From the NCBI GenBank assembly GCA_000320545.1, contig ADNK01000094.1, positions 42,545-106,544 of the forward strand: DNA of 64,000 bases. Direction: 5' to 3'. This stretch comes from Bigelowiella natans CCMP2755. Taxonomy: Eukaryota; Protista; Cercozoa. Positions 2,300-61,451 of the stretch are shown here, piece after piece; position 1 is the first letter of the stretch; every line of letters begins with the position of its first letter. Made by a program: the position numbers and the translations under genes. The notes beneath the pieces were generated by a model. That model searched no databases, was not told where the DNA came from, and was given only the letters and a program-made list of their open reading frames with translations.

Positions 2300-2700
2300 A
2301 CATTTTGCCGCCATGAATATTTGTACACTTGGCGTTTGCCACCTATGTAACAAGTGTAGAGACTTGTTCAATGCAAACAACAAATGCATCATGATGAAAT
2401 AAATAAAGAAACGGCTATAGTGACAGCATACGTGCATGCACAGTATCGTACGTGCTGCTCATTAGCAATAAGCAAATGCGCGATCGATACAACGTACAGT
2501 GACACACTATAACGTACTACTTGTTATTGCGCACATAGCTAGATAGCCCCAGCAATCAATAACAACATGCCAATACACAATCCACAATGACTTTGCCCAT
2601 GCAATATTCCAGGTCACAATGTAGATTGCTGCATTAAATCGACTATGCTCAGAAGCAATATGTGATAAGCTTTCGATCAATGCGTTTAACGCACCTTGCA
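2300..2700. other. TG/CA-rich intergenic island 1 (convergent junction)
   Basis: Dense tgca/catg/gcat/agcta motifs between a + gene end and a - gene end. Confidence 0.5.
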
Positions 2701-10309: not shown

Positions 10310-10780
10310 TAATAGACATCATATGCAAACCCATCCTAAACATACATAAGCATGTACCTACAGCTGCTATGCACACGTAGTAGGCATAGCCTAGCTAGCT
10401 AACTGTACAGATGCACGTACGTATGCGAGAGATCCTTGAGTCGATTTCCAGTTCCCATGCCGCGAGTCTCGCTCAGCGTGCTTAGATTTTGCCCGCAGCG
10501 CGTGTCCTTATTCCACGTGACTTTTCCATGCGAGTGCGCTGGGGACTAGGAGTGGCGCTGCGTTTTAGCACACGAACACATGTCCAGGAACGCGCCTACC
10601 TACGCATGCCTAGGCGAGCATGTTACATTGTCATGTGCATGTTTGGTGGCTATTTCAGCTTTGTTCAACAACTACAAACAGAGTGGCAAATAGCGGTTCA
10701 CAGCCCATTCAATGATTCTACGATGCTCATTCAAGGCAACACACTCCCTTTTCCATGTCATAATTTCGTAAGTTCTCTAT
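10310..10780. other. TG/CA-rich intergenic island 2 (convergent junction)
   Basis: gcctagctagcta, atgcac, gcatgcctagg, tcatgtgcatg. Confidence 0.55.
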
Positions 10781-13704: not shown

Positions 13705-13799
13705 TGAAGCTCCGAGGTCTAACGAACACAGAGCATTTTGAGAGCGCGACATCATCAAACTGGATTTCTCGAATTTTAGTTTGCCGGTCACTTGTTTTT

Positions 13800-14260
13800 G
13801 TTGTGTTGGTGTTTCTCATTGCTCATTCATGGGTGTAAGCCCTGTGTTGCCCATGTTTCCTCACGGCAGCATGTCTAGATTTGCACGCACCGCCATGCAC
13901 ATCTCAGCTAATGCTATTCAAACAGCAATGGCAACAGGGCATCAAAATTCATCCTTGCTTGTGGCCATTTCTTTGAGTGGATCGTTGCCCCAACACCATC
14001 AAGGCAGAGAAAGACGAGGACACGCGCCATTGATGTTGCTTCTAGTCATGTCAACTTGCCACGCCAGACAGCCATGCAGCGCAGCATGGTTGTCATGCAT
14101 TTGTTCCACGTCCCGCGCATTGAGAATGCTTCATGCAAATGAGAACGTTTCATTGATGTGTCATGTGCGCACGTTTTCTTGCAATTTTTGTGCATGGATT
14201 CTCACTGCGCTAGTGGAACAACCATTGAATTACTGTTTTAGTAACAAATGCAAGATCTAG
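13800..14260. other. TG/CA-rich, TpA-poor island 3 (tandem junction)
   Basis: Very dense catg/tgca; most remaining TA is in ctag/cta/tag. Confidence 0.65.
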
Positions 14261-17223: not shown

Positions 17224-17285
<62 letters not shown>

Positions 17286-22272: not shown

Positions 22273-23051
22273 CGTGTATGTACGGGCTATGACCGTGTAT
22301 GTGCCATCTTATCAGGGAAGCCAGAGATATTTTTAAGAAAAATCAGTTCCAAAGATTCCATGCTGATGATCTGGTAAAGTATGAGCTAGTACTACCTCCC
22401 ACAGCAGCAAGAAGAAGAGAATGGATGGTTTGCTGTGAATAAAGAGAATATAGACTGGTGCTTAGCTATTATCGTATGATGATCATGAAAGGGGAAGATA
22501 TAGCTACTACCTACTACTACTACTTTGCTGAGAAACAACACCAATATGTGTTATTATGCGTACAACAGAAGGCTGGAGCTCCATGGAACAAGACACCTAG
22601 ATCAGATGGAAGGAATCTCCAGTCATATCTTACACTCACCTCGTTTACTTGCAGCTTGAATATACGTGACCTTAGGAGTCTCATTTGCGTACTACTACAT
22701 GTGTTGCGATGTCTTCTGTGGTATTAAAGGATGAGAATAGCCACGAAGGCACCATGGTTGAAAACACCAAAGTCAAGTATGGGAAAGAAAATGTACGTAC
22801 TTACCCGCATAATTAATTACTAAGACACCATGGTGTTATATTCTCCTCGGTTCTTCTTCCGTGACCATATTTTTCCTTGCTACTGTTTCAAAGTGCGTGA
22901 ACTAGCTGTGGAATCGTTGTCATGATCTTATTCATAGCTCAATTAAGATTTCGATATGCCGACTATGTATCACCTCGAGCCCGAGTAATCTCGGTGCAAC
23001 TGAGAGGGGGGCTTGATTTCACCCTTAACTTCTACTGTGTAGGTTCAGTGA
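20469..23051 (+). CDS. Hypothetical basic protein with repeated APW motifs, many short exons
   Basis: In-phase GT-AG exons: AGIDNKEVMTLRKLGVMVPGSKIA; KQKTAAPWDVIDSRQ; EARDIFKKNQFQRFHADDL; KAGAPWNKTPRSDG; QMRIATKAPWLKTPKSS; FRYADYVSPRAR|VQ*. Confidence 0.6.
22181..22270. repeat. Compound microsatellite (GT)n(GA)n(GT)n(GC)n, intronic
   Basis: Read directly from sequence. Confidence 0.95.
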
Positions 23052-23119: not shown

Positions 23120-23622
23120 ACTTCAGCATTGCATCCCAAACGGATGTACGTACTGTACCGTAGTGTGCGAATGCGTATTTAGAGTATTCATGCCATGCGA
23201 ATGTGAATTATTATCATATGCATGTTGATCGGCATTTAGGGAATTCCAATTGCAAAGTTGCGCATGATAAAGATAAATACTCTTTTTCGTTCCAACTATC
23301 ATCCAATCCGATGTGCAATAGCTTTAATCGCAGCTGATTAATAGCTGCTTGCTGCCTTATGTTACGAATAAATACACTTTATTTGTATGGTATTACTACC
23401 ACACTTACATGTACGTGCACGCAAAGAATATGCATGCGACAGACCATATTATATGTGAAGTACGTAGCCATATTCTACTGTTACGTTGTGATAAGCAATG
23501 TTCGCATGGCTATATGTACATGTCTCATCAAGGCGCTGAGCCGTTCACGTTCTCACGGAGCGTGGTCGATTGGAGACAAATGTTGAATGTGTAAGGGTAT
23601 GTGTGCGCATATGCATGACTGT

Positions 23623-23659
<37 letters not shown>

Positions 23660-24340
23660 GTGTACGACATGTGCGCGCATCTATGCCTCTTAAAATTCAT
23701 GTTTGGTGTGACCGACATTGCAATGAATGGTAGCCACCTGCAGCTACAACGCTACGAAACGTAGTTAAATGTATTATTATTAACGACTCCTATGGATATT
23801 CAATGCATTCGCTACGCTGATAGCATATTCTAATTAAGGGCCTATCTAGCTTTGCACAGGATTAGCGATGTAGCCGCGATTAGTTGCGATTGCATAATGC
23901 CATCAAACTTATCATCATGCTCGCCATTTATAACATGTGAGACGTATATATTTATGCGCGCCATCTGTGGTGTTGGCAACATTGGAACTTTTTTGCTGTC
24001 CAGAGGACAACGCACAAAATTGGAAGCAATGTGCGACACATGCAACACATTGCAAGACATGGACCACATTCTGCAATGCAGAAAATACGGACCACAGAGA
24101 CTCAGAATCAACAAATAACTGACGGCCATCATGGATCGCAACGATAAGACTACGCGTCTCACTACCGCGGAAAAAACAACTCGCAAAGCTGCGCGCAAAG
24201 CACGACATGCTAGACCAAATCATGATGCATTTTCATGCATGCAACATGTGACCAAGGAAACAAACAGACACAATTTAAGCGCTGTAGCCGCTGCATTGCA
24301 TAGCTACATTAGGATGACCATTGAAAAAATTTAAACATTT
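23120..24340. other. TG/CA-rich intergenic island 4 (convergent junction), contains LINE relic
   Basis: catgccatgcg, atgcatgttg, gcatatgcatg, catgatgcattttcatgcatgcaacatgtg. Confidence 0.6.
23890..24334 (+). mobile_element. Degenerate 3' fragment of a non-LTR retrotransposon (LINE) ORF2
   Basis: FMRAICGVGNIGTFLL..CDTCNTLQDMDHILQCRKYGPQRLRI matches the C-terminal CX2CX7HX3C zinc knuckle plus Y...R of LINE ORF2. In-frame TAA at 24116-24118, then the frame continues to 24334. No RT domain visible. Confidence 0.65.
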
Positions 24341-24415
24341 CATTACATCCGTCTCATATATTTATATAAGAGAGAAGCCAGAGAGAAAGTATTGAAAGCA
24401 TCTGGAATGAGATCA

Positions 24416-34579: not shown

Positions 34580-35600
34580 CGCGTTGCAAACGCATGATAC
34601 AATGCAATCGTTGATGTGTATGCATGCTTATGTAAGCTAAAATACACATTATTAACAGGCGCGCCACACCAGTTCGACTTGACGCTGTCATTTCAAAAAC
34701 ATTGTTACTGAGCGATGAGAATAACTCACTCGCAACGCCAGCCCGCCAGCCCGCAGCTAGCCACTACATCATCGCTGTTATGTCACCCAACAACTGCGCT
34801 AAGTAATATCCGATGTGTTGATCTGTAAGTATTACTGATAATCAGTACTACTGATAACCATTGCTTAGACAGTTACGTTTGTCCCCTTTCCTCGTACGCT
34901 AGTACGTACAACGAGTGTTTGCTGTCCTGTCTTGCTCAATTAATGCTAGAATGGTGCGGCTTAGAGAGAGCTCTATCACCGTTTAGCTGTACGTCTAGCT
35001 GTGCCAAATGATGAAATGAAATAGACGGAACAGGTCGTCATGCACGCATCTCTGGATCTAGACATGTCTAGATGTGGGCCAGAATTGCTAGTAGATTGAC
35101 TGTACTCGCCAAATATATTGTCGATCACATCGATCAGTGGACAACGCCCTTGCCACGCGTGCAATTATTGCATCACATATATGCGTGCGCGTTAATAGTT
35201 GCCGCAAATGTATCACGTCGTCGCTGTGCAGTAACTCTAAAACTGCACGAAATGCAGTGTCAGCATCATGTACGTGATTGAACTCAACCCCTTTTTTTCC
35301 AACGGTAATCCTGATCTAGTGATGTAGCTGTGCAAAGCTGCGTCTATCGCTGGCGATGTTGTATTTGTTTGTTTCTGCTGTGATGTCATTCATGTTGCAA
35401 ATGTTTTGTGTGGTGCCATCTAGCCATGCGCGCGATTGCGTCCGCGACTCGCTGTGCACATGTTCATTTTACGCGCGCGTGCGTGTGTCGCATGCCAAAA
35501 TCTTACAAATAATTATGCATTGCGTGAATTACATGCAACGCCATAGAAAATAAAGTGGAAACAACTCGACATGTGTTTTTTAATGGATCGTTTGACCAAA
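34580..35600. other. TG/CA-rich intergenic island 5 (convergent junction)
   Basis: gcatg/atgca-rich; perfect palindrome tctagacatgtctaga at about 35057-35072. Confidence 0.6.
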
Positions 35601-40478: not shown

Positions 40479-41446
40479 TACTTGCTGTCTGACAATGCGA
40501 AGAATTTAAGGAGCTGCCATGGCTAGATTACACGTACATTAAGAAGAAATAAGTATCATAAACTTCTTACAACACCTAAAGGATCCTCAGTCCTTCTTTG
40601 TGTTGTACTACTTGGTCGAGGGGAGAAGGGTTCGTGGTAACCTTCCAGGCGCTCTCTCAAATTATTGAGTCTACGTGCGTGGCTGTATAAGTGGAAATGC
40701 TCTATGAACTTTTAGTACGACATAAAAAAATTGACAGGTTCGAGAGAAATTATCCATTTTCGCCAGTTCACACGAGGCTGCAAGCGGACCCGCTGAAATT
40801 TCAGCTCAGTGTTACTTTTCATGGTTGATGTCCAGTGGAATATTACTCCTAAAATAATAGTATTATGATGTCGTAGGGATATTATATATGTAATAATATG
40901 GGAAAGCGAAACTAGATGTAAACAACAGACTGAAAAACTTTCTGGAAATTATCTGGCTTCCCTGGGGCTTTCTGGACGCTTTCGAGAATCAGTGTTGAAA
41001 ATGTTATTTTTAGCCGATTTCGGAAGGTCTCACGTAGAGAATGTTCTGCGAAAGGAACTGAAATGAGGAGCTACGCATGCACGAACACAAAGGTAATACC
41101 CAGGGCATTCGAAACATGATGCAAAGGGAATATCTTATCGACTTCCAAATCGCCCAAAGCATGAGTCTGCTATAGAAGTTTTCCCGGTTGTAAACCACAT
41201 TTCAATCGGTCCCTGATCCAAAATCATGAACCCTATCAGCAGCATTTTCGAACGATTTTCCGGAATCTAAATGTTAGATGTTTTGCGTTATTTATTTTTC
41301 GTTATCATGTCCCTGTCATACATGCAGATCTAGCAAACCCACACCCGAAAATGCTGCCCTGAATTCCAACTACATGCGTTCATTCCGGCAAAACTCTGAC
41401 ACGCATGCTTGGATGATTGCTTTGCTCCTAGGAAGGAGAAAACCAC

Positions 41447-43722
41447 ATGGCCCAAAGAAAACGAAAGGTACTTCTTACTCCCCTTCTTGGGATATTTCGT
41501 TTGTAGCTCTCACAGACTTCTTCATGTGTGTTTGAACGCAGAGACGTAACTACGAGGAACCGAACTGGTCCCGCCCCCCCGCAGACAGCTTCAAGCTCCT
41601 CGTGTTTGGCAACAAGGAACTCTTGGAAGAGATAGACATTGGTGTGTCGTCATGCTATACCATGGGCAGATCCGGTTCTCTATGTGATATAAAGGTCTCT
41701 GTCTGTCCTGTCTGAGTGTACAAATAAATGCAGAACAATGCAACGGCCAATTCATTTTTTTTTAAATTTGAATAACCAGGTTTGCCACGAGAGCGTATCC
41801 CGACAGCATGCTATTCTCCAGTACAACTTCTGATAAGCCTAAGAATATATTCTTTATCTTTCATTTGAACCAACATTCAAAGTGTTAAATTCATGTCGTC
41901 CTTAATTCGTATAGACATGGTACTTCGGGTATCCATAGTGCACAGAAACCGCTTCCAATTCATATCTATGACATTGGCTCTACACACGGGACGCGCATCA
42001 ACAATAGGTAGAATATCTCTTTGAGAGAAATCCCTGTATTCATTTATTTGGTCTCTCCCAAGGTTGATTTCCGCAAAGAGCTACATACCTCTGCGAGTCG
42101 GAGACGTGATAGAGTTTGGAAGCTTGCCTAATCGCTATGTGGTGACTGATCCAGAAAATTATGAAAGTTTACTCGCGGCAAGCGGTGCATACCAACCTGA
42201 CATTGACGGGAAGGAGAAGGCGGTCTCGGCCACTCATCCAACCACAATAAATCTTTCGAAACTCCCACAGCCGTCGACAATCGAAGAACTGACAAAGAAC
42301 CCGTATGAAAGAATTTCATCGGACATCACCCAAACTCTCTCGGCAAAAAGTGGTGGGATATTCCAGGACGAATCCTCCTCTGAAGAAGACGATGAATCTC
42401 CCGGTCTCCAGAGGAAGGGCGCGAAGAGCATTTTTGAAAGCGTGGCATTTGTTCAAGAAGGACAGGATCGAAGTTGCAGGGGAAATTCGCGTGAGCTTCC
42501 TCTCGAAATTTTTAATGATGACGAACCATCATCATCTCAGGTTCAACAGTCGTCCCCTTCGCCGTACATCTCCTCTTCCTCCGATAGTGTGCGCAACAGC
42601 ATGAATTATTTCGGTCGCTGGCAGAAGCATACTAAAGGTTTCGGCCTGAAAATGCTCCAGAAGTTCGGTTACGTTCGAGGCCATGGACTTGGCGTCAAAG
42701 AGAGGCGTGGTATATTGCACCCAGTGATTCCTGTCATGTGCGTTCCCGGAGCCAGCTTAGATTGCATTGTGGACGAAAGTATAGAGTCTGACGCAAAGCT
42801 AGACGAGAGGTCTCGCAAGATCGCACGAAGGCTAAGAGAGATTCGACGGCGGATGATTACAGGAGAGAAAGTCGATGTGGTCGCAGAGGCGGAGAATAAA
42901 CAGTTGCAGAAGATCGTCGCGGGACAGACTGCAAGCTTTGAGAAAATCAACAGAATAAAGTATGCCACCGACACCAAAGGTAGCAATTTCGTGACCATTT
43001 CTTGCCTTTATACGTCCAAGATTGAGATAATTACATTCCCGTGTTATATCCTCCCCACCTTCCTAGTATTCGATGCTCTCAATCAGCACACAACTCGGGC
43101 CTTGCATTATACTGATGCGTCGGAAAACGTGGAGACCGAGGCCCAAATGTTGAAAAGGGCGGAGGAAGAAGCCCTTGGATACAGAAAAAAGTGAGTACGC
43201 GTATACTATGTTGTTTGGTCTAAGTCTGAGAGCAAACTTTGCGTGGCAACAATTCTACTCTGTGTTTTGTACAGCCGAGACCTTGTTGATTTGCGGCGAA
43301 GGCTCATGAGAGTGCGGACAGAGAGAGAGACCTGGAGACAGAGATTGCAGACTCTCAGTGGTCAATCTCGCGAATTTGAACAGACAGAGGGAACACAGCG
43401 ACAGGTGTGTGGGTGAAGCGTTGTTTCTATGCTAGTGCTATCTTAACGCAATGAAGCGAGTTTGTGGAGATGAAAGTGCGCATTTATCACTTTAGTTCCA
43501 AGAGCACGTTAAGATGGCGACGACGGATAATCTTCTACAAGCTAGGCAAATGTATAGATACCTTTCCTTCCAGGTACCACAAAACTATTGATATTTCTTT
43601 ATTGTTGCTGTATAAGCTCGTTCGATTTATACTTATGCATTCAGGAAAACACCTTAACAAATCGAATCGAATCTGTCGACGCAAAGAATGTTCGCAAGAA
43701 AAGATTAAAGAAGATATTCTAG
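41447..43722 (+). CDS. FHA domain + G-patch (ZGPAT-like C-terminal half) protein; further 5' exons likely
   Basis: FHA: [21 protein letters not shown]|[40 protein letters not shown]-patch: [41 protein letters not shown]. Then VFDALN, a coiled coil, and KKRLKKIF*. Confidence 0.85.
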
Positions 43723-43739
43723 TTGCATTCACGATCATA

Positions 43740-44280
43740 TCTGCAACTCTGTCAATGGGCATGTTTAGCTAGATGCATGTCCGTTTGCAAGGGCTCTGCA
43801 AAGTAGCTTTCTTGTATCGACCGAAGTTAGGTCACTTCAGCATCGCTAGATCGCAACGCCTGTACATCTAGACATGCTGCACGAAGTTTGAAAATCGCTT
43901 GCAAGCAGCTAGAGCAATCACTAGATCAGTCATTTCAGACAGTCGATCAATGCACACAATTTCTCAATTTCCAGCAGCTAGATGCAAAGTGCAACTGACG
44001 GGAATCTTCCCGCGTTCAGCCAAGCGCAAACGCGCACGCAGTTTACATGCAGCACCCGCTCAGTTCCATGTTAGTCATGCTGCGAGCTAGCTAGATTGCA
44101 AGGAAAATGCAAATGATGCAGCATCACAGTGTGTGTGCACCATGCCCACGAGGCATTCGATGCTTGTTCATATTGCATGTCTATCATGCTCTGTCATTTG
44201 CTAGTCAGTTTTTAGTACATGTAGCCATGTATGGCTGTACAGGTGGACGATCGATCTCGCGATGAACGCGGTGCATAGAC
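43740..44280. other. TG/CA-rich, TpA-poor island 6 (convergent junction)
   Basis: agctagatgcatg, gcagctagatgcaaagtgcaa, gagctagctagattgcaa; TA mostly in CTA/TAG. Confidence 0.7.
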
Positions 44281-44392
44281 GACAAAACCTTCAATGAAAT
44301 AAATACACTGTCCACCGCACCGTTTTCTAACCTACTGATGGATGAAGCTCAGTGCGCGTAGCCCCCGCCCGCTCGAGCCCACTACTAAATCT

Positions 44393-44900
44393 TCAGATTT
44401 TGCCGTGGGAGAGCGCGTCGATAGCAAAGCGGATCTGCTTCATGTGAAGACCGGTCTGAGTGGCGTAGTCTAACCCCGTTTCACCGTAGGCGTCCCAGCA
44501 TGCCTTTGTGCCCGTATTACCCCAATCGGGGTGCGCAGAGCCTAGTCGGGGGTTCGCTGGATTTATAGGGTACAGCACCACGATTTTGTTGGTAGCCGCC
44601 CACACGTGGAAGTTGCTCGTTAAGAGTCTCGCGTCCTTGCGCGCGTATCCCATCTCGTCGAGGGGGTTGTGCGGGGCGTCGTGGCAGCCGTAAAGGTGGA
44701 CGTGCAGGCGGCAGCGCGCGCCCTTCCTGCAATCCCGAGGAATGAAGGCGTAGAAGGTGTTGTCCTGCCCCGTGTACCCGTGACGTGCCGGTACCTCAAC
44801 TCGGGCGTGGAGGTGATACTGTGATAGCCAATCCGTCGGTATCTTGGTCTGGAATGGAATGGGGGGGGGTTGAGGGAGTGGTATCAGCGGAAATGAAAAC

Positions 44901-44944
<44 letters not shown>

Positions 44945-45982
44945 GGGGAGGTGAAGGTGAGAACGAGGGGAGGGGTTTATGCGTGTGTGAAGGCTTGTGC
45001 AGGGCTATGGGCTGATATCAACTGGTAGTTCGTTCGTGTGAATGGAAGTGATGATAGATAGTGGGAGAATAGGGGGTGTACATGTAGCAGCAGCAGCAGC
45101 AGTAGTAGTGGCAGTAGTAGTAGTACTAACAGCAAACAGCAGCAGCATGGTACCAGCATAAGCAGTTATAGCGATGGTTGTTTTAAAATGCCGATGCTTC
45201 TATCGATGAGCAGGATAAGATATAGTACCTGATACCATGCATTCCACACGAAAGGGTCCTTGAGCCTCTTACCACCGCCACCATTACCACCACCATGGTC
45301 ATCGTCGTACATCCAACGCATACACTCCCCTGCCCCGTCCATTGGCGGGCCCTCGCATGGGCGGATTTGATGTGCCCACGCTGTATCGAGAGACTCGCCG
45401 TTGAATGTGTTGCCGCGGCACATCCAAGGCATTGGCGTTGTGTGGCCGATCCTGATATAGTCGTTCAGCTTTAGCTGTCTTCCAGGGTTTCGAGCCCAGC
45501 GCTTGAACAACTGCAGCGAGTTTTTGCACACGCCCTTGCGATGAGAGCTGTCATATTGCCCCCTGAAGCCGTAGGCGCGAGCTCCCGGTAGGTTCTGATC
45601 CGCATCATCAATGCATCCAGGAATCTGATCGTGCCACGAACGGTTTTGCGCGCAAACCGGCGTAGCACGCACCACCTGCTCCAGCTCTCCGACTTTCACC
45701 GCAGATGGGAAGAACTTACAGTGATCGTACCTCAGTGTCAGGTTCGCACCGCACACCGCGCCGCTCGCGTCTACGCAATGGGGGACCGCCATACCGACAT
45801 CGTATGGGGCCGCGCAGTCGTACGCCTCACAGCTCTCGTTTCTCCGAACGAGGGTCTCGTTGCTGAAGTGCGTGATCGCACATCGGTACGGTTGGCCCGT
45901 GAAGCCGCACGACCCCGACACGATGCGGGAGTAGGCAACGTGGAACTGAACCTGCATATTTTTATTATCATTGTTAATAATA

Positions 45983-46014
<32 letters not shown>

Positions 46015-47265
46015 TGTCATTGTTGTTCAGATCCAAGGATTTGAATATGATAATGACCGATTTTCTGTTTCCTTACAAATCGGAATAAGGCCGGTTCAGA
46101 GAATGTGATTATAATCATTGATGGGCAGAGCAGGCAGGCGAGGCTCACACAAGGCCTTACACCCCCCCTAACCTTCCACACATCTGCTACTACTATCGTT
46201 GCTCTTTGCCCGAAAACAAAAATCAGCACTTAACTGCCATGTCGCCGCCAGCTGAAGAGCCGCTGATGGTAAGCGTTGGCTCGAGATCGAGATGGGGTAT
46301 GGTGTCAAGGTTTACGACACATGATCTTCCTTCAAGGAGGGCAACAACGCTGTACCATACTACAGACGCCAGGAGCCAGTAAAACAGCACTATCCCGACA
46401 GCTGAAGTCATGCTGACATACGGCCACATCGCTTTGCGGAACGAGCAGTGCTCTTTCTCTGCACGCTGATCCTCCGCTGCCCCTCCGATTTTCTCTTCCT
46501 CTTCGTTGAGGATGCCATCCTTTGAATCGGCCTCACAGTCCGGGTCCAACCCCCTAGGCGACGACGGCGTTGACATCTCCATCATCGACACCCCGTCCAC
46601 CGTCGAGGAGGCTTCGGAGTTGTTCAGCCCGTTTGGATTTCCCGACGCGCTGCCTAGGTGAGAGTAGTGGGCTCTTCGGTGAAGGAGGTTCTGGTAAAGT
46701 GTGCCAAAATGGTCGCAAATTTGGCGGTAGATACCCGGGTCGTCGTGCCGTAGATAGCGTGCCTGTGCAAAACCTACAAGGAACACAAACGCCAAGACTT
46801 CCAGCGACTCTTTCAATATCTGTTTCACGAGTATCCCAGTGGCGCATTCAAATTGCGCAGCTGTATAGCCCATAGTCATCGCCACGATCGTCGTAAGAGC
46901 GTGGTAAATGAGTGCCCTCCACAACGGAGTGGCATTTACGTTACCCACGCGCTTTGGATGGCAGCACCTCACGAGAACTCGTAGCGTGGTAGCCACGATG
47001 AAAAGGCAGGTCAAGGTCACCACCCCGGCAATAGGGTTATCCACCGCCTCCCATGTCAGGTAGAACATGGCGCCGGAGACCTTCTCCTCCACTCCGAGCA
47101 CCTCTAACGAAATATTAATGTGGGCACGCGAGGCATTTTCCTGAAAAAGCAGAGGCGTTTTTAAGCTGCGACATCTTTTGTTCTTAAAATAGTAGATCTA
47201 GATCTAATACAGCAAACACCCAGGATAATCTCAGTATTTACCCTACAGTCAGTCGGGGAAGCCAT
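44393..47265 (-). CDS. Fungal-type poly(3-hydroxybutyrate) depolymerase-like serine esterase fused to an N-terminal multi-TM domain
   Basis: LTISGSSAGGDMA|VQFHVAYSRIVSGSCGFTGQPYRCA (lipase box); RGQYDS (Asp); IGHTTP (His); FIPRDCRKGARCRLHVHLYGC; WAATNKIVVLYP; ACWDAYG..YATQTGLHMKQI. The upstream in-frame exon 46223-47101 encodes about four TM helices. Confidence 0.85.
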
Positions 47266-48307: not shown

Positions 48308-48649
48308 ATCACCATCAGAGCATAGTTTAACCGCGAGACAAATGCAAGATAAATAGTTATCACTCAGCCATCAAGACCTTATTTCACGTCTCTATTTTTA
48401 TGTGAATATATTTCGAAAGAAGTTTGTAAACATTGTGCATAGACAGAAGTGCAACAAATTTCAATTTGAACATGGGCTGGTACCAACCGGTTTACATATG
48501 AAAATAGACTAGGCAATTTAGTGTGAATTAGTCTAGTAGTGTGAAAATTAATTTCAAATCGTTTGTAGAATATGATCGTACATAGTTTACATACTATAAA
48601 AAGTGAGCAATCACATGCAGAAGATATATTATTTGTTACTCTAGTTGCC

Positions 48650-49430
48650 TCTAATATGTACAATTATGCAGCCTCTGCCAGACTGATAATGCGTATTGCT
48701 AGATTGCTTCAGTGTCATGTTACTAAAATTGCAAACTAGTAAATCTTACAATGCACATCGATCTAGCTAGCTAGACATATAGTTTAGATGTTTTGACAGA
48801 TCATGTTCGCTGAGTCGACATGCCTCGCTTGTAGTCCATCTCTAACTAGCTAGATCTGTCAGTTTGCATCGTGCATGTAGCGAAAAGTGTGAGAAGCAAT
48901 GCTATAATCTAGTAATTGCTGCAAACAATGGTTGCAGATGTTTGCATGTGTCTCGGTGTGTGTGTGTGTGTGTGTGATCATGAGGCAACAACAAAATTAG
49001 TTCAGGCACTCTAGCTGACATATGGGAACAAAATAGCACATGACACGTTGCAATGCGCCCACACAGTGCTAGAGTGTGCAAATTGCATGCTTGCAGGGGA
49101 TTTTCATTTCAAATGCAATTGCCATCTTGCCGAATTTGTTGGGCTCAAGATGATATCCCATGCCCAGATGTCAAAGTTCACATCATTTGACAAGCCATTG
49201 CTCTAGATTCCTGAGTGGAACTTGTTGATTTTCCCTCAAATGATGATGCAAGCAACAACGATCTGCATTGTATCAATGCTACAGTAAGTCACCATTTTGA
49301 ATGCTCACCAACTTTCACAATGAGTTGGTGTTCAGACCCAAACCCTTTTTGCACACATTAGGCTATTGAAAATTATTGACCAGAGCCGTCACATTTGTTA
49401 TTTCTATGTTTTGCATCGTTGAATTGAATG
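48650..49430. other. TG/CA-rich, TpA-poor island 7 (convergent junction)
   Basis: atctagctagctaga, ttgcatcgtgcatg, gtgcaaattgcatgcttgca. Confidence 0.7.
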
Positions 49431-49440
49431 CTAGATAAGT

Positions 49441-49930
49441 TTACTCTTTCCATTCCTTCGAACCAAGAACAGATACGTTCATTCCGACTTGGCACCAAAG
49501 CGTCTTCCCATTCACGATGATAGGAATCTGACGATTAGAATGATAACTATTAGTGGACATAGAATGGGGACTTTACATTGTGCTTTTTTTGAACATAGTT
49601 GTATACCTTCCCTCCTAGATACCAGCCGCTGGACCCACTGGAGAAAGCCCGAGCATCACCAGAGAATTTGCTGCCCTCTAACTCGAACCTTAGTTCCTTT
49701 GCTGCTTCAATGAACTCCTCCTTCGTCATACAAGACTTTTGATCCTTTGGTATTTTTGCTGGCGCTTTTATACCATCCACAGGGAAGCAGCAATGATGTT
49801 TTTCTGTCTTTGGTTTCTTGGTACATACAGGTTCCTCGTCGCTGAGTGAAAACTCATCAGATTTGGAGTCATTTAACTCTGTTGGAGAGTCCAAGATATG
49901 TTTGCGCTTGCGGTTCGTTCTTCGAGGCAT
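49441..49930 (-). CDS. Small 2-exon protein with basic NLS-like N-terminus and a C-terminal FSSGSSGW..GK..QVGMN..V.GSK domain
   Basis: MTKEEFIEAAKELRFELEGSKFSGDARAFSSGSSGWYLGGK|IPIIVNGKTLWCQVGMNVSVLGSKEWKE*. GT-AG intron at about 49531-49603. Confidence 0.75.
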
Positions 49931-50250: not shown

Positions 50251-51385
50251 ATGGTGAAAACCAAGTCCATATTTGATTCTTGTATGCGTTGTCGTAGGGT
50301 AGAAATCAAATCTTTTATTATTGTAAAGATCAAATTTTTTGTGTTGTCGCAGAGTGAAAATGTATCCCATGTTATATTTGTTTGTGCGAGCACTATTGTT
50401 AGGAGAATCCTCAGAATCCGAATACGAAATCATGGATGAATACTGCTTCCCTCCACCCCCACTATAGTTTTTACAACAGGAGGAGAACAAGGATACCTTA
50501 GTCAAACATAAAACATTTGGACGACATTGCATAAACGACCCTTTGGGCCGCAGTGGATGCACCAAACAGCTGGCATGAATTTGCTGTTCCAGCAACAAAT
50601 AGCAATGCTGATGACAAAAACCATAATTTTCAACAGAGCCACGGAGACGCGTGGGGGTGATGCGAGGTCATCAGTTCAGGTCACGATCAACGGCTGGGGA
50701 ACGTCGGAGATCACCATCGTCAGTGTCAAGGCAACCACCATGGTAAATCAGTCGAGTGCAAACGCATTATTTTATCCCGAAAATCATGAGCAGCCAAGGC
50801 AACTAGATCATTGCAACATTGAAGAAATACACGCCGCCTTTCTTTCTTTCCCACCCATCCTCGTCTACACACACACACACACACACATATATACATACAC
50901 ACGATCATGGAAATTAGGAGAAGGGCTGTGGAGTTTTGTCTGCGAGAGTCCGAATATCCTGGAGCGAGAAAGCTTTCAGCAGTGCTCTTAGCATCCTCAC
51001 GGTGTATTTAAACTATTGATCGTGTATGACTCTATCCTCATAGTTGTTGCTATAACTAGTGCCTCTGGATGGTCTGCAAGCTTGGATATTCTACGTCACT
51101 TTCCACAGGTCATTCTTAGCTGCTGCTGCTGCTGCCGTACATGTGGGAATGGCTACATTCTTCCCCTTTTGCAAACACACACACACATACACATACACAT
51201 ACATAATACTCATCCATACACAGCCACATTTTCTCAACAACTAAGCAGCTAATCAACAGAGACTGTCACCTGTAATTGGAAACACCTTTTAGCTCCAGAT
51301 AAAACTACCATTTTGCTGGAAACACTATTGGCCAATGAAATATGAGCTATGAGCACATATGTAAATGTGCAAATGGTGTTATGCT

Positions 51386-54865: not shown

Positions 54866-57009
54866 AAAGTAATAGAATTAGAATTACGAGAAGGTAAAAA
54901 CTACTACACTGGTGTCGCGATCATAATCTATAAAGAAGTGCGTATGGCGGCGTACTTAATTACTCAACTACTACGTATATCCAGAACTCTCTTCCTCCTC
55001 CTCCTGCTGCTGATGCTGCTGATGCCATATTACATTCAATCATCAGTTGTCTTCCCTATTACTTATTGTAAAATCATGTGGCCAGATTCTCCACAATTCA
55101 GAGCCATCTACATCAATAGAGACACCCCATTCTTGCAACGATGGCTCATGCACGAGAAGTGAAATGCTTGCTCTTGAAAAGCAAATTCGTGATCGACTTA
55201 TCGTCGTCAGTAAATCCATTACCAAAAATGGGTTTATAAACTACTACGGACCCCAGCGTTTCACTGGAGTGTAAGGAGACAAACTAACCAAACGACACTA
55301 CACACAAAGCAAAAACACAATCACTCATTATACTTTTACCGATGATATTGGTTGGCGATATGTTTTCTGTCGCGTATGGGTGTTTATAACTGAGTGCGCT
55401 ATTTACTTCGTTCAAAGGCTTTCCGGACATCAAGCATGCATAGCTTCACTGAGACGTGACTATAAAAAGGCTTGTCTGGCACTATTACAGCCTACCCGCC
55501 CTCCTGATGACTTACCATGGAGGTAGTAATGGCTATAGTGTACATATATGCATGGTGATATGTCCATGCATAAGAGATGATATGTCCATGCATAAGAGAG
55601 AGAGAGAGGGGGGGGGGGGGGGGGGGGAGAAGAGATGTTTTCTTGTGTGTTTTATATTTACATGTAGTCGCTGATTCTTCATAATTATTCATTGAAAGGT
55701 CTGTGTGGAAGGCTACAAAGGACCCTCAACGAACACTTCACTCTATGCCTGTACGCGGCTTTACGTTTGAAAAAATTATACTGAGACAGCTTTTGAAGTT
55801 GTCAAAGTTGACTAAAAATGAAGTTCTCACTCCTACCAAGTATGTACGGCGAGAGGCATGGTTTGATAAAGGAGATGAAGATCACGAAACAAAGGTGACG
55901 ATGGCATCTAAAATTACGGCTGGAATCACCACCGCCACCACCACCAGCAGTAGTCCGGTTGCTCATCTCCAGTGGAGGAGTATCTTTCTGGCCATTCCAT
56001 TTTCTCAGCGATTGCTAATAGTAAGGGCATATCAAAGTCGGCTATGGAATTGCGCTGCTACAGAAAGGGTGAAGCGGTGAGTTAGTAGGGACTATATACA
56101 ACATGAATGAGATGCTACCAATTATAAATAAAAACAAATTCAAAATCGTCGCTGAAACATTTACAATTTTCTCCTAAACAAATCGATTTCCATCGGTAAA
56201 AGGAAGGGTTAGGGTTGGGGAGAGATGATCTTTCAAGCTTACATATTGATGATACATGCGGATCCTGAATGTTATAGACACGTTGGTATGTGGTGGCTGC
56301 CTTGACTGTATTATACTGAGCGACGATTAGCAGAAGTACACTTTGCAACAACATAATGATTTGATAGGTTCGGGTTCGACATTGTGAAGGGCGATTTGCT
56401 TCTCGGAGGGTATGGAAAAGAAGGTACTGAATATTTTTAGTGGAAGATAACATTCTAGATTATGGTTGGTTCATATTACAATGGCCCCTCACTCTGAATA
56501 CTACTAATGTAACAGAGGCATTTGCAGCAAATCCGGTAGTTTTTGGCTACGAGACGTCATCATCATCATCATCATCATCATCGGGGAGCGAGAAACTAAG
56601 GAGAGGAAGGAACATGATTTCCAACATCGTCTTGCCTTTGTTCGGTTGCGGAGTCAGGAAGCCTAGGAACATCATCGGTTCAATGATGAGAAGACATCTA
56701 CAGCACCACGGGCTGCTTGGTACTACTCTCACCATAGAGATTCAAGATTCCGGAGCATTGATGGAACCAAGGCAAGAACCAATTGTTGACAAGGAGGCTG
56801 TTCATACTAATCGATTTGCTCGCCACCATCGTATACTGACTGCGATAAGAGAGGGAAAGGCAAGTCGGAGGAAATGGCCGAAGATGAAACGCCAGAAGCA
56901 ATTCACAACTGACGATGAAGTTGTGCACGTCATTCTTGGCTCGTATCGACATTTAATTGCTTATCCACAAAATTTCAGTTGCACAGTCGTTGCCTCTCCT
57001 TTATCATAG
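50251..57009 (+). CDS. TruD/PUS7-family pseudouridine synthase with long N-terminal extension containing PPR-like helices
   Basis: YGIVEYRS..GLGGTIKRCREDFIVTEID; KRGLSTFEA; IRFAGLKDAYATTVQ (catalytic Asp); GNRFEL; GFINYYGPQRF; LIVRAYQSRLWN; IVLPLFG; GSYRHLI. Start approximate. Confidence 0.88.
51388..51462. repeat. Compound microsatellite (CT)n..(GT)n, intronic
   Basis: Read directly from sequence. Confidence 0.95.
53299..53364. repeat. Perfect 32-bp tandem duplication
   Basis: agtgttaacgataatatgacgatggtgttgac x2. Confidence 0.95.
55556..55599. repeat. Perfect 22-bp tandem duplication (intronic)
   Basis: tgatatgtccatgcataagaga x2. Confidence 0.9.
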
Positions 57010-57039: not shown

Positions 57040-57720
57040 TGTGCATTCAAATGTATACAAATAACAATGATGAATAAAAACGAGCATTGCAAGATGCGAT
57101 TGCATGCAATGGCGAGCTAAGTCACACCACACTCACATAGCCCCCTAGAGTACACAAATGGCGAGGCCTGACGTCATCAATGCAGGAGTGACGTGGGCGC
57201 ACGTCGAGCCGTATTCACTGCGCATACACGCACATGCATGCCACATGTGAGTGACTTCTGAAGCAATGTGGAAAACTTTAGCTATCAATTGCACAGCGGG
57301 TATGGTCCATCTCGTTGATTGAGCTGAATCACTAAATGAATGAAAGTCATGAAGTCAAGAAGTGCTAGAGTGAGGCAACTATACATCATGCATGCAAAAA
57401 CGAGCTAGCTGCTAGAAGCGATACTATGTGCTAGTTGTTGCTTGCATGCTTGCATGTTTGCTGTTGCAGTATGTGTCCTAGCACGCTGGTCATTGGACAG
57501 ATCGAACTAGGGTGAACACTACATGCCAAAAGATCACCAGGCCATGCTAGTATGTGTGCTTAGACGCACGCAACTGATCGACGATACAAATGTTGCACGT
57601 TTGAAGGCCCCTGGCTGATCCAAATGTGTCATTTTGCATCGATTGTCGCAATGCGATTTAATGAGGGCTAAATAGTGCAGCGATTCCATGCTGGTAAACG
57701 ATTGTTGGAACTTAGCAGGA
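57040..57720. other. TG/CA-rich, TpA-poor island 8 (convergent junction)
   Basis: attgcatgcaat, cacatgcatgccacatgtg, gagctagctgctag, cttgcatgcttgcatg. Confidence 0.7.
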
Positions 57721-57813
57721 ACCAGACATTTTGTTATCAGATTCAAAAAATACGTTCACTTCCACACCTTCTATCGTAGGAATATGCACGTATATTTACT
57801 TAAGTAGAGCTAT

Positions 57814-57864
<51 letters not shown>

Positions 57865-58482
57865 TATGAATACAACACAGAGTATTTTTTACTACAACTT
57901 ACTGGCACTGTGACGTGCGAATGTGAACATCGTAGTATATAGACACATGATAGCACTTTCACTGCCGTGGTTGCTTTGGGTTGATGTAAAACAACCCTTT
58001 ACTAAATTCTCTGCAACTCACTCATATTTAGGGTAGAATTGGAATCATCATGTACGGTAGTAACAGGATAGGAGTAGTATGGGACTTTCTATCTATATAT
58101 CTATCTACATCTCTGCACTAGATGATCTTGAGAAATGACAAGTGTAATAAAAGTGGATCATAGAATTGTATTCTTTCTTCGGACGGCTAGGTAACTCTTT
58201 CGTCCTTTTTGCTCATCTGCTGGGTCGTGGGCGGAAAAGGGGGAGGAGAAATGAAGAGTAATCTTCTTCATAGGTGCATTCTGGTAGGAATCGTAAATGG
58301 AGATGATGATGACGATGATGATGATGATGATGATGATGGTGGTGGTGGCAATAGAAAAGAATCTCCATTATTATTTTCCTTAAATGGGTGGCTTGGCTTT
58401 GATCTTTCATCCATAGCTCGATTAATCTTAGAGATTGAAATCAAGGAAGCTACCGTTCTTCTTGGTCTCTTTTGCCTAACTT

Positions 58483-59216
58483 CTATTCGTCTAAAGATAT
58501 TCGAAGACGCTTTGCTTCTCTTTTCTCCGGTGACAGCGTCTTGTTTAAAATTGATAACTTTGTTTTCGTAGTTTGTATTGTTATCATCATAACCTTTGCG
58601 GTCTTAAATGGGAACGACGACGACCATCGTTTTCTATCGATAGCAGATACCCTCCCCTTCTCTCTGTTGTCTGTCATTGCAGGTGATTTGATCATTGAAG
58701 GAGAGTTGGGGTTTGTCTCCTCGGAACACACCGGTTGTGATGCAGCAGCAGCTGCAATATTTGTTGTTGATATTGTTGCAATAGATGGAGTACTAATTCC
58801 TATGGATGGATGATGATCAAATTTATTGTCGTATAAATGGGAGGGTGATAACCGAGTATTAGTCACTAAGCACTGGTGTTGCCTTTTGGGTTTATTCTCA
58901 TGATGATAAGAGGAGGCAGCACTTGAGGTAGATGAAGAAGCAACAGCGGTTCGTTTCTCGAAATCTAATCTAGCCTGGACATGTCTTTTGAGCTCTAATT
59001 CCCTCTGCATTAGCAGCTGTTGTCGCTCTTTCTGATGCTGAAGAAGTCTTCGCTGTTCTTCACGAAGTTGCCGGAGTTCTTCCTGCATGCGATGTTGCTG
59101 CAGATCAAATTCAGCAATAATGTTGTTCCCACTATCATTTACTTTGATCTTCTCCTGCATTGATTGATCTTTGTTATTCGGCATTATTGTCACTGGTTGT
59201 GACTGAGACACTTGGG

Positions 59217-59250
<34 letters not shown>

Positions 59251-60682
59251 CTTCTTCTTCTTCTTCGTACTAGTCGTCACTCGGAGCAATTGTTGCTGTG
59301 CTGCTTTTGTGTGCAACTGTGGTGGTGATTGATGAGAAGAAAAGTCATTAAGAGCGATGTTTGAGGTCGACATTGAGGATATTGGTGGTGGTAATACTAG
59401 TGGCAGATTGTGGGGCTGCTGGTGGTAAGCCAGATCCCTTAAAAGAAGAGATGATATACCAGCATGTAGACCAGTAGTAGGAGATTCTCTGCAGCAGCTA
59501 CTCTGGCCTGGGTGTTTTTGTTGCAACCCCCCTGACTTTGCTATCCTACTTGGTCCTACTCTCCCTGACCTTAACACCGGGGTTGGAGGGGTCATCGTTG
59601 ATAGAAGCCGAAGTCTCTCCATATCAACCGAATTTGGACGATTGTAACAATTTACAAGGTAATCATTTATCTTAGAACTTTGTTGAAAATCAATTGAAAT
59701 TTCTTGCGAAGATGATGGTCCTGGAATATTCTTCTCTGAAAATACGAAGTTTTTATTTTGAAGAATTTCACGTAATGTAGGGCCTTGCACAATTCCTGGC
59801 ACGATCTTCCTCTTCTTGCCTTTTTTTTGGGTCAAGCTACTGTAGCTATTTGCCGATTTTTGGGATTGCTTCGAGACTTTGGCGTTGGCTATGTTGTGAT
59901 GGAACATGGCCGATAATTCATTTCCTCCAAAATGGCTTAATCTTTCTTCGGAGAAGGGATCAAAATCCAACTTGAAAGTTACAGCTGGTTCTGGTGCAGC
60001 CCTCTTCTTTCGGCATCTCCGTGCTGCTTTTATCTGTTTATTATTAGAGGTAAGGAAGTTCTTCATGCCTTCTAAATATCGTTTTTGCTCTGCATTATAG
60101 CGACTCTGGTCTTTTGTGGCAAGATGTTGAAAGACCTAAGAAAATCAGATTTAAGTAACCAGCTAATAAATGCAAATTCATTTTCTCACCTCCTTTTCGC
60201 TCTCGGACATTTTTTCCCATACATCGCGGATAATCCTGGAGATTCGTTGGGTATGCCGAGTCGCCTGAGTTACAAATACTCTCTACTATCGGGATGTAAT
60301 GTGATGTGTGACTACATAACTTCTAGAATCTGAGAATGATAAAACTATTTTGATGCAATACCGAGTTCTTTTCGACATGGCGGCTCTGAATTCTGGTATG
60401 GGCGTAAAGCTGGAAGAAGTTGAATGCATTTCGTGCACGCCTAAGATAAAGGAGAGGAAAGATTCAGTGAAACAGCTGTATCAGTCTATGACCGATCTCC
60501 CCGTATTGCGAGGAAGATTCAGGCTGTTAAACTAATGTGTTCTTAGCACAAAATCAGCCACTTTTTTGTTTGCCTTTCCGCCCCGTTCAGAGGATTGGGG
60601 GGAGCGTTAGGGTAGCCAAAGTAGGGTTAGAAGTGTACAAAAAGTTACTTGGGGCGGACGAGCGTTGTGGACACTCCATCAT
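58483..60682 (-). CDS. HMG-box DNA-binding protein with long low-complexity/coiled-coil C-terminus
   Basis: MMECPQRSSAPK|RARNAFNFFQLYAHTRIQSRHVEKNS|ATRHTQRISRIIRDVWEKMSESEKE|VFQHLATKDQSRYNAEQKRY runs in frame into the 527-aa ORF. 3' end may extend further. Confidence 0.85.
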
Positions 60683-61079
60683 GCATAATGCGAGGGTGTG
60701 ACATTAGCCCAGCTCGCGCAAGCATCTGATTCCCTGAACATCCTAGGATTCCATTTTACTTCGAATTCTGTCGATTGTCCTTGTCGTCATTGATTTATCA
60801 CCTTGTATTGTTATTTTTGGACCGGAGACGTAGTGTGAACATTATTACAAGCAGTAACAAGTGGGTACTTTTTTATTACTTCCTTCCTGTTGCATAGTAC
60901 TACTACAATCCTGGTAACAATGCATGATGCATGTCGTACGAAATATCCTAATAGAGTCTATGTAAATTTAAGGCCCGACTTTTTTTTAAAAATTCATAAC
61001 ACCTAGATCTACATGTAAACATAAACAACGTTAGGCACATCTCACAAAACCGCGAAATCAGGAAATCAGGAAATACAAA

Positions 61080-61240
61080 ATTTTATTTTTTCGGCCAGCT
61101 CGGAATGTGATCGAAATTCTAGGAAATTGCAGATTTCTATTCTAGAATCGAGGAATCCCATAGGGAATCCTTTACACCTGTAGGGAATCCTGGAATCCGG
61201 ATTTTTGAGTTCTATTTTCCTGGGAATTCCCAGATCTAGT
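61080..61240. promoter_or_regulatory. Cluster of GGAATCC/GGAATTCC motifs in a divergent promoter region
   Basis: aggaatccc, gggaatcct x2, tggaatccgg and palindrome ctgggaattcccag within 160 bp. Confidence 0.4.
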
Positions 61241-61451
61241 TTTAGAGGAGGAAGAGGATACTCCCAACAAATATTCCATCATCATTGGTTTATCTCATGA
61301 CAACTCCTGACATGGTGCGCTCGGTTGTGAGATTAGTAAAGAGAACTAATGCGAAATGCGTGTTGCGGCAACATGATTCCTCTTGTCGCATCTCCAGAAA
61401 TAACAATAGTAAGTACATGTAGGAGAGTCGGAACCGAAGTTCGAAGCGTCA

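Follow-up and report, generated by a model that had tools for sequence, protein, structure and literature searches.

The stretch analyzed here (the window) comprises 64,000 nucleotides of Bigelowiella natans CCMP2755 contig ADNK01000094.1. It is eukaryotic, gene-dense DNA with many short introns and a G+C content of ~0.44; the introns seen in spliced RNA contigs are of the GT..AG type, 55–330 nt long, with a consensus that barely extends beyond AG/GT...AG. These features agree with the values published for B. natans (45% GC, 7.8 introns per gene, mean intron length of 184 nt; PMC12730881, in the accessible part of that report). Between two converging genes lies a 541-nt segment of unusual composition, island 6, one of eight such islands in the window. 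An earlier note had described these islands and attributed them to a mutagenic process that converts TpA, analogous to fungal repeat-induced point mutation (RIP) and opposite to it in direction. We find its observation partly confirmed and its interpretation partly supported: the islands exist and sit at gene ends, and a TpA process has likely sharpened some of them, their common make-up perhaps being inherited from silent retrotransposon and simple-repeat debris.

Eight islands sit at gene ends

A 300-nt sliding count of TGCA, CATG, ATGC, and GCAT (TGCA-cycle words) over the 64-kb window has its eight highest peaks, 70–97/kb versus a mean of 21.7/kb, at exactly the eight islands that had been listed before (Table 1). 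Against non-island windows of the same length, all eight islands reach at least the 99.8th percentile in these words, which bears out the claimed saturation in TG/CA tetranucleotides, and at least the 99.1st percentile in the observed/expected ratio (obs/exp) of the GC step. For TG+CA, island 2 is at the 91.7th percentile, the other seven at the 99.3rd or higher. Island 6 has 83 words per kb (100th percentile) and obs/exp values of 1.56 for TG+CA, 1.76 for the GC step, 0.44 for GG, and 0.43 for CC. Weaker peaks of 60–63/kb are found in introns at 21086–21872, at 55267–55865, and in a divergent spacer at 40943–41606 (63/kb).

Table 1. Coordinates of the islands and of features in or beside them. 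LINE, long interspersed nuclear element; LTR, long terminal repeat; ORF, open reading frame; TRF, Tandem Repeats Finder; UTR, untranslated region.
Feature	Positions	Strand	Remarks
Island 1	2300..2700	.	TGCA-cycle words at 99.9th percentile; TA obs/exp 0.94; 1 CTAG only
Island 2	10310..10780	.	TA obs/exp 1.03; TG+CA 1.33; GC step 1.54
Island 3	13800..14260	.	TA obs/exp 0.31 (0.1th percentile); TG+CA 1.82; sole strongly TA-poor island
Island 4	23120..24340	.	+ gene 3' UTR to ~23395, spacer without RNA contig, then LINE fragment
LINE (non-LTR retrotransposon) 3' end, 5'-truncated	23951..24360	+	tblastn and RNA; inside island 4
Island 5	34580..35600	.	TA obs/exp 0.86; TG+CA 1.44; 9 CTAG; GG 0.29
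Old diverged LINE 3' end copy	35294..35399	-	Inside island 5; inverted relative to island 4 copy
Island 6 (focal)	43740..44280	.	Spacer and 3' UTR ends, + G-patch gene / - gene
Island 6 core	43861..44206	.	Between RNA contig ends of two converging genes
Island 7	48650..49430	.	Between + SAP-domain gene (ORF to 48304) and - gene
Island 8	57040..57720	.	TA 0.71; TG+CA 1.66; 8 CTAG
(AT)25 array	57817..57867	.	TRF, 25 copies, 96% matches; ~100 nt past island 8

All eight islands sit at gene ends. Spliced RNA contigs and reads show converging genes at islands 2, 4, 6, and 8, with GT..AG splice signals to the left and CT..AC to the right of the converging junctions. At island 7, convergence follows from reading the minus-strand frame to its stop at ~49443, and the strands on either side of islands 1 and 5 come from a codon-bias map only, which is noisy. 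The assignment of seven islands to convergent junctions is thus backed by RNA at four of them, by a frame at one, and by codon bias only at two. The single tandem junction described earlier looks right as well: island 3 is probably head-to-tail, downstream of a - helicase gene and upstream of another - gene.

Island 2 is flanked by a + gene (GT..AG intron at 9725–9901, contig to 10330) and a - ORF at 10914–11705. To the left of island 4, GT..AG introns continue up to 22792–23043 and the contig ends at 23395, with AATAAA at 23368; to its right, a T-run loose end at 24315 in raw reads is the poly(A) site of a - gene. On the left side of island 8, three raw reads give a poly(A) loose end of the + gene at 57086, with AATAAA at 57072; on the right, the island is downstream of a - gene at 58486–60135, and - strand tags are found in 57343–58676. 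Island 6 has GT..AG introns to its left and a - ORF to its right. In X15, X16, and X18 alike, the contig of the + gene runs 424 nt past the exon end at 43190, to ~43860, and the - gene variant contig (X16) ends at ~44207, contig ends being a proxy only for true RNA ends. The island accordingly consists of ~120 nt of + gene 3' UTR, a ~346-nt core, and ~75 nt of - gene 3' UTR. Contig depth is 0 in the bins 13505–14171 (island 3) and 23510–24176 (island 4) and lowest in the bin 48672–49338 (island 7; 1.3, 2.5, and 0); these bins are 667 nt wide, the island edges are 3' UTRs, and an empty bin proves nothing.

The island composition begins directly after mapped 3' ends. This, and the location of all eight islands at gene ends, would suit native functional DNA, namely a selected two-way terminator, insulator, or nucleosome-favouring sequence whose low TA would be a by-product and in which TGCA/CATG, (A)GCTAG(A/C), and TTGCA would be putative binding or structural elements. 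Two-way terminators are known in yeast (PMC5499651, in its accessible part). Set against this reading, which we regard as possible but doubtful, the word-count scan shows that tandem junctions in the window are mostly without large islands.

Composition shared by the islands

Pooled island DNA (5.6 kb) was compared with the remaining ~58 kb of the window; the values below hold with simple repeats masked. Purine-pyrimidine alternation is 0.593 in the islands versus 0.480 outside, and the excess is present in each of the eight. Pooled obs/exp values are raised for TG (1.59–1.61), CA (1.52–1.53), the GC step (1.66–1.68), and AT (1.2) and lowered for GG (0.47–0.48) and CC (0.65–0.66), and the transition probabilities run in a cycle, T>G>C>A>T. 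At lags of 4, 8, and 12 nt, identity is slightly increased (0.285, 0.274, and 0.267 versus 0.253–0.254 expected). Homopurine runs are nearly absent, and CTCTCT occurs 0 times inside and 109 times outside.

TpA depletion, which the earlier note had taken as the mark of the class, is not a common feature of the islands. Pooled TA obs/exp is 0.77–0.78 versus 0.81 in the rest of the window, which is below RNA-supported introns (0.87) and above supported exons (0.67). For islands 1 through 8 the TA percentiles are 81.8, 91.1, 0.1, 80.6, 75.2, 13.9, 5.2, and 25.0; four islands exceed the window median, with obs/exp of 0.86–1.03. Only island 3, with TA-free runs of 168 and 128 nt, is extreme. The value for island 6 is 0.65, and island 7 passes from ~1.0 at 48401–48800 to 0.37–0.42 at 48901–49300.

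CpG is still present, as had been noted: CG obs/exp is 0.91 in pooled islands (range 0.44–1.23) versus 0.84 outside and is lower only in the TA-poor islands (0.44–0.85). A CG deficit of ~20 faces a TG+CA excess of ~374, and simple decay of methylated CpG is indeed inadequate as an explanation.

CTAG stands apart from the other words. It occurs 48 times in 5.6 kb of island DNA and 122 times in 58 kb outside, a 4.1-fold density, and thus is enriched rather than merely spared, as had been supposed. The 48 copies compare with 11.4 expected from a first-order Markov model (4.2-fold) and are 1.5-fold above the product of CTA and TAG divided by TA; TGCA (1.18-fold) and CATG (1.43-fold the first-order expectation) are, unlike CTAG, mostly accounted for by dinucleotides. 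CTAG lies in (A/T)GCTAG(A/C) contexts, sometimes in GCTAGAT(T)GCA, and forms short tandems only in islands. Island 6 holds nine copies in its 541 nt and island 7 holds 11, including CTAGCTAGCTAG. In islands 3, 6, 7, and 8, 69 of 111 TA steps are within CTA or TAG versus 38% outside, in line with the earlier observation on surviving TA.

Some longer words are nearly restricted to islands: AGCTAGAT occurs 5+2 times inside and 0+1 times outside, CTAGCTAG 5 times versus 0, and GCTAGAT(T)GCA is found in islands 6 and 7. These recurring words would fit functional DNA, as would the raised frequency of the deformable CA/TG steps and the near-lack of homopurine runs. Word content varies by island, however, with islands 1 and 4 not being rich in CTAG. 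Palindromes do not reach past 4-mers, and no periodicity of 10–11 nt was seen in the islands; a palindrome or hairpin model was rejected, palindromic 6-mers numbering 152 versus 154.5 expected, dyad symmetry ending at 4-mers, and the inverted repeats being short and imperfect. There is also no left-right asymmetry of TG versus CA (255/219 versus 244/256, p 0.12), and a GU-rich downstream element or other strand-specific signal was rejected. Motifs of the apicomplexan AP2 type (GCTAGC, TGCATGCA) were dropped, the host being a chlorarachniophyte.

The same composition might be a fossil of simple repeats, that is, the neutral remains of (TA)n, (TG)n, (CA)n, (TGCA)n, (CTAG)n, and (GTAC)n arrays that transition-biased mutation would scramble while keeping their alternation. 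Microsatellites are very dense in the window (107 TRF rows in 64 kb), islands 4, 6, and 7 contain live (GT)n arrays, and scrambled alternating runs of 17–23 nt are built from TG, CA, TA, and CG units. The raised identity at lags 4, 8, and 12 and the short CTAG/TGCA tandems found only in islands point the same way, and the transition/transversion ratio is 7 for mutation in the ordinary genome of B. natans (Mettrop et al., bioRxiv 10.64898/2026.01.13.699255; here and below as given in the accessible part of the preprint). Nevertheless, only 13.6% of island bases are in alternating runs of at least 8 nt, close to the 10.6% for a uniform chain of the same alternation, so that the alternation is spread out rather than array-like. 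Of the repeat types most common outside, such as (CT)n and (AGG)n, the islands show no trace, which needs a separate explanation, and tandem or satellite structure is lacking inside islands 6 and 7. As an account of the whole signature, fossil repeats seem unlikely to us.

Possible TpA conversion in the islands

In mutation-accumulation lines of B. natans, two integrated viral regions received 231 of the 302 new single-nucleotide mutations; with one exception, those in the viral regions were A>G or T>C changes, these all at TpA, and the larger region, derived from a nucleocytoplasmic large DNA virus (NCLDV, a giant virus), is transcriptionally silent (bioRxiv 10.64898/2026.01.13.699255). Low-TpA coding sequences were enriched for reverse transcriptase and endonuclease-reverse transcriptase in the same preprint. 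A RIP-like process of opposite direction, TpA>TpG/CpA, as the earlier note had postulated, thus exists in this organism.

The preprint uses genome-wide 5% cut-offs of <=0.43 for Rho_TpA and >=1.52 for Rho_CpA+TpG and defines clusters of at least 3 kb as at least three consecutive 1-kb windows passing both; affected regions span 25–186 kb (bioRxiv 10.64898/2026.01.13.699255). Island 6 passes the second cut-off (1.56) and fails the first (0.65). Six of the eight islands pass the second, islands 2 (1.33) and 5 (1.44) failing it, and among whole islands only island 3 (0.31) passes the first. Both are passed by 500-nt windows only at 13651–14450 (island 3) and 48851–49500 (right part of island 7) and by none of the 1-kb windows in the 64 kb, so that no three-window cluster arises.

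TA and TG+CA vary inversely among the islands, with a slope of -0.57 across the eight (r -0.84) and -0.59 across 18 sub-windows (r -0.78, p 1e-4). Slopes inside islands span -0.57 to -0.75, the estimate for 1:1 conversion is -0.63, and the slope outside is ~0. CG, too, is scarcer in the TA-poor islands; both TA and CG therefore seem to drain into TG/CA. The share of TA in an R-Y-R-Y context (R, purine; Y, pyrimidine) declines from 29.5% outside to 17.7% and 10.3%. In islands 3, 6, 7, and 8, the loss of TA outside CTAG is about two-fold and is alike in RTAR, RTAY, and YTAY contexts, which argues that RTAY, proposed earlier as the target, is no special one. At junctions 7 and 8, TA-poor cores adjoin TA-rich transcribed flanks (G+C 0.31–0.33) with an equal TA+TG+CA pool.

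How much of the composition such conversion may explain can be gauged from step frequencies. TG+CA make up 19.1% of steps in the islands versus 13.5% outside, and 16.8% would be expected with the outside shares and the islands' own pyrimidine-purine fraction. The excess of 5.6 points is thus made up of ~3.3 points from alternation and ~2.3 points from a shift within the pyrimidine-purine steps, among which TA holds a share of 20.5% versus 26.0% outside and CG 15.1% versus 17.6%. We infer that in-place conversion of TA (with CG) to TG/CA accounts for about two fifths of the TG+CA excess.

That a TpA-specific T:A>C:G process aimed at termination zones made the whole signature, sparing CTAG, is highly improbable. 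The process exists in B. natans (bioRxiv 10.64898/2026.01.13.699255), the equal pools at junctions 7 and 8 count in its favour, and a forward simulation of TA>TG/CA in the window's own TA-rich non-coding DNA reproduces G+C, TA, TG, CA, and CC at 50–70% conversion. Transitions, however, preserve the purine or pyrimidine class of a base, so no transition-only process can lift alternation from 0.48 to 0.59; this excess contradicts a TpA mutator as sole cause, and such a mutator cannot by itself be the origin of the islands. Four of the eight islands have TA obs/exp of 0.86–1.03, and the four-fold enrichment of CTAG could not be created by changes limited to TpA. TGC is up by 19–26/kb in every island class, whereas TAC, its sole TpA precursor, stands at only 14/kb outside, and RTGY is up by 24/kb in the islands where RTAY is undiminished. 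Finally, the intact (AT)25 array near island 8 lies in a TA-rich flank (GC 0.31; TA obs/exp of 1.27–1.5 in windows 57601–58100), indicating that TpA is not erased just outside the island.

LINE fragments, a possible origin of the islands, and known systems

Segment 23951–24331 in island 4 matches residues 1032–1158 of P0004, an intact 1158-aa ORF2 protein with PF00078 (RVT_1) and PF14529 (Exo_endo_phos_2), at 88% identity over 127 aa (tblastn, E 4e-66). Two gene models named jgi/Bigna1 match this fragment at 87.5% and 80% identity and an ORF inside island 4 at 89% and 78%. The frame in island 4 is broken by a TAA where relatives carry Gln, and no genomic poly(A) tail was found: there is no A-run at 24360, and poly(A) is on reads only. 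In a blastn comparison, 24240–24329 aligns with 35399–35294 in island 5 at 68.9% identity over 106 nt (E 3.7e-6); tblastn with the LINE protein gave only weak matches in islands 3 and 5 (E 7.9 and 0.69), not significant alone. The island 4 fragment has TA at 0.52, TG at 1.81, CA at 1.53, the GC step at 1.71, and alternation of 0.58; eight host exons, by contrast, have alternation of 0.40–0.55 and a GC step of 0.79–1.12. By sequence comparison, parts of islands 4 and 5 are thus shown to be fragments of one LINE family, that in island 4 bearing the island composition. Since a retrotransposon coding fragment bears it, the signature is not specific to terminators, which counts against functional DNA; the fragment is not derived from a microsatellite either, which counts against fossil repeats. 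Judged by composition, at least one mobile-element family has the signature as well.

Over 24185–24360, 10–11 RNA contigs carry mixed variants, with flanks diverging at 24356–24362 and a poly(A) loose end at 24360; the last 175 nt of the LINE fragment in island 4 are thus multi-copy in the transcriptome. RNA depth over the same segment is very high on both strands, and at several sites most reads differ from the base in the window. Such deep, mixed-variant RNA points to several expressed paralogous copies lying within other transcripts in both orientations.

Substitutions between copies were tallied, in small numbers and without polarisation at the DNA level. Shared-word fractions of 0.95–0.97 in the DNA runs imply too few differences over 0.5–1 kb for such tallies. 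Copy P0005 differs from the intact ORF2 by 19 replacements of A:T>G:C type and 7 of G:C>A:T type, and three of its four aligned Tyr residues have become His, His, and Cys; copy P0003 is balanced, with 10 versus 10. Of six variable transitions in RNA reads over the island 4 LINE repeat, four are between TA and CA/TG. A variant contig at 44248–44390, covering the right edge of island 6 and the adjoining 3' UTR, has 17 differences, of which 3 are inside the island. More widely, X16 (partly also X15 and X18) carries a variant of the - gene over 44248–46938, with ~1.5% coding and ~12% 3' UTR differences (17 of 143 nt), which may be a divergent allele, strain, or paralogue. No tally shows a TpA mutator acting in any island; the family-level data, with P0005 as a sign of the process, fit the B. 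natans preprint. The few comparable substitutions are not dominated by TpA changes and give no direction in the islands.

Our tentative preference, held a little short of calling it probable, is that the islands are silent gene-end spacers of mobile-element and simple-repeat debris with an inherited make-up, likely sharpened in some of them by a TpA process. They would be little-transcribed spacers and 3' UTR ends where neighbouring genes finish. Their alternating TG/CA/GC-step make-up would derive from silent retrotransposon and simple-repeat debris; islands beyond 4 and 5 would be old debris as well, and debris may gather at converging gene ends because insertions there strike no promoter. 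The known TpA-directed process, together with CpG decay, would have pushed islands 3, 7, and perhaps 6 and 8 further toward TG/CA, and the remaining TG+CA excess would reflect more numerous pyrimidine-purine steps, which transitions cannot make. What the earlier note had inferred about a TpA process shaping the islands finds support in the passing of both cut-offs in islands 3 and 7 and in the trade-off between TA and TG+CA; the alternation excess and the failures of the simulation speak against it.

Several results weigh against the debris model and its TpA component. Mobile-element DNA is identified in parts of two of the eight islands, ~0.5 of 5.6 kb. No relatives of island 6 or of islands 1, 2, 3, 7, and 8 were detected elsewhere in the window; the absence of an alignable repeat, noted earlier for all islands, gives way at islands 4 and 5. 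The zero-depth bins of assembled contigs are a weak sign of silence. The trade-off of TA against TG+CA is partly forced, because four pyrimidine-purine steps compete in alternating DNA, and is directionless; moreover, islands with less TA are not richer in G+C (r -0.22). The simulation misses the GC step (1.15 versus 1.66 observed), GG (0.76–0.80 versus 0.47), TGC (20–24 versus 38/kb), CTAG (0.5 versus 8.6/kb), and TGA/TGG. The island 4 LINE copy differs from the intact ORF2 by one change of TpA type (Tyr>His) versus five of G:C>A:T type, including CAA>TAA, and 17 of the 73 aligned positions differ between the LINE ends of islands 4 and 5, with 8 transversions, 3 TA<->CA, and 1 CG<->CA. In the variant contig beside island 6, 9 of the differences are transitions, among them 5 CpG<->TpG/CpA and 1 TpA<->CpA. 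The debris model leaves the enrichment in CTAG, the excess of GC steps, and the deficit in GG/CC unexplained.

It is also conceivable, although we think it unlikely, that the Bigelowiella TpA mutator is aimed at any silent DNA, convergent spacers included, and not at foreign DNA as such, leaving CTAG untouched; spacers would perhaps be marked by double-stranded RNA from overlapping read-through transcripts. If so, each convergent gene pair would be a small natural reporter of the mutator system, and CTAG would hint at the specificity of the enzyme or of a protector. A mutator that hits host spacers would have silence or a chromatin state as its target, not foreignness, and hundreds of small loci could reveal its sequence context (CTAG). 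If convergent junctions have this composition in general, some of the high CpA+TpG windows of the preprint's scan would be spacer DNA, in which the excess would stem for the most part from purine-pyrimidine alternation rather than from a loss of TpA. Should neither be the case, the islands remain an undescribed, very regular sequence class at the gene ends of a compact, intron-rich genome. The mutator itself is already described; for the islands at gene ends, our literature search found no published account.

The host gene adjoining island 6 has as its sole relative a hypothetical protein of Amorphochlora amoebiformis (56% identity over 19% of the query). A 550-aa ORF had no usable match in a protein atlas, and its homologue search was also empty, as were metagenome scans with two queries, the protein beside island 6 and a 23-nt piece of repeat. 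No RNA genes were found in the window by Rfam (gathering thresholds) or ARAGORN, and no Pfam domains in island ORFs among 239 stop-to-stop ORFs of at least 70 aa and 12 long ORFs. A 172-codon open frame at 13742–14257 runs across the TA-poor island 3 without a Pfam match; Cys, His, Met, and Ala abound in its translation, as TG, CA, ATG, and GCA words would give, and the frame is most likely a by-product of scarce stop codons, not a gene. Perfect microsatellites of the window include a compound (TC)21(TG)13 at 17226–17294 and poly-C and poly-G runs of 20; repeats of homopurine type, common in the rest of the window, are missing from the islands.

At 40780–41340, where a DnaJ-domain gene (-) and the G-patch gene (+) diverge, the spacer contains 3 of the window's 20 TTCnnGAA units along with imperfect ones, which resemble heat-shock elements; no perfect trimer of such an element is present there, and TTCnnGAA is not enriched across the window. 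Non-coding DNA at 61050–61250 contains a cluster of GGAAT/GAAAT/TTCTAGAA-like words (ggaaatcag twice, ttctagaatcgaggaatccc, gggaatcc three times) and may be another promoter with repeated factor sites. At 55556–55627, (GA)n and a 20-nt run of G come after a perfect 22-nt tandem duplication (two copies of TGATATGTCCATGCATAAGAGA); the site is immediately upstream of a + gene and next to one of the weaker TGCA-word peaks, at a head-to-tail junction. Many RNA contigs converge at 51119–51137 with differing flanks on both sides and loose ends in 3–7 contigs per run, which suggests that several transcripts share a short coding motif, either repeated or of low complexity.

Among known systems, the two-way terminators and convergent intergenic regions of yeast (PMC5499651, accessible part) resemble the islands in their position between converging genes. 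Fungal RIP, known from ascomycetes, shares with the islands a transition signature tied to particular dinucleotides, in DNA that is silent or repeated. Through C>T changes at CpA, RIP raises TpA/ApT and lowers (CpA+TpG)/(ApC+GpT). The islands are opposite in direction on both indices, with TpA/ApT of 0.65 versus 0.76 outside and (CpA+TpG)/(ApC+GpT) of 1.58 versus 1.26; their host, moreover, is a rhizarian alga, not a fungus. Copies that retain only the 3' end of a LINE are the usual product of abortive reverse transcription, and 5'-truncated LINE insertions in gene-poor niches are matched by islands 4 and 5, which hold 3' ends of one LINE family, although, of 5.6 kb of island DNA, no more than ~0.5 kb is so identified.

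The closest comparison is with TpA hypermutation in B. natans itself (Mettrop et al., bioRxiv 10.64898/2026.01.13.699255). The preprint measured new mutations; the viral regions span 25–186 kb, whereas the islands span 0.4–1.2 kb between host genes and are mostly not TA-poor. In its accessible part, the preprint gives no tetranucleotide context, CTAG, GC-step, or GG/CC effect, or link to gene orientation. The two are alike in that TG+CA is raised and DNA encoding reverse transcriptase is among that affected, and the islands, too, may be silent DNA.

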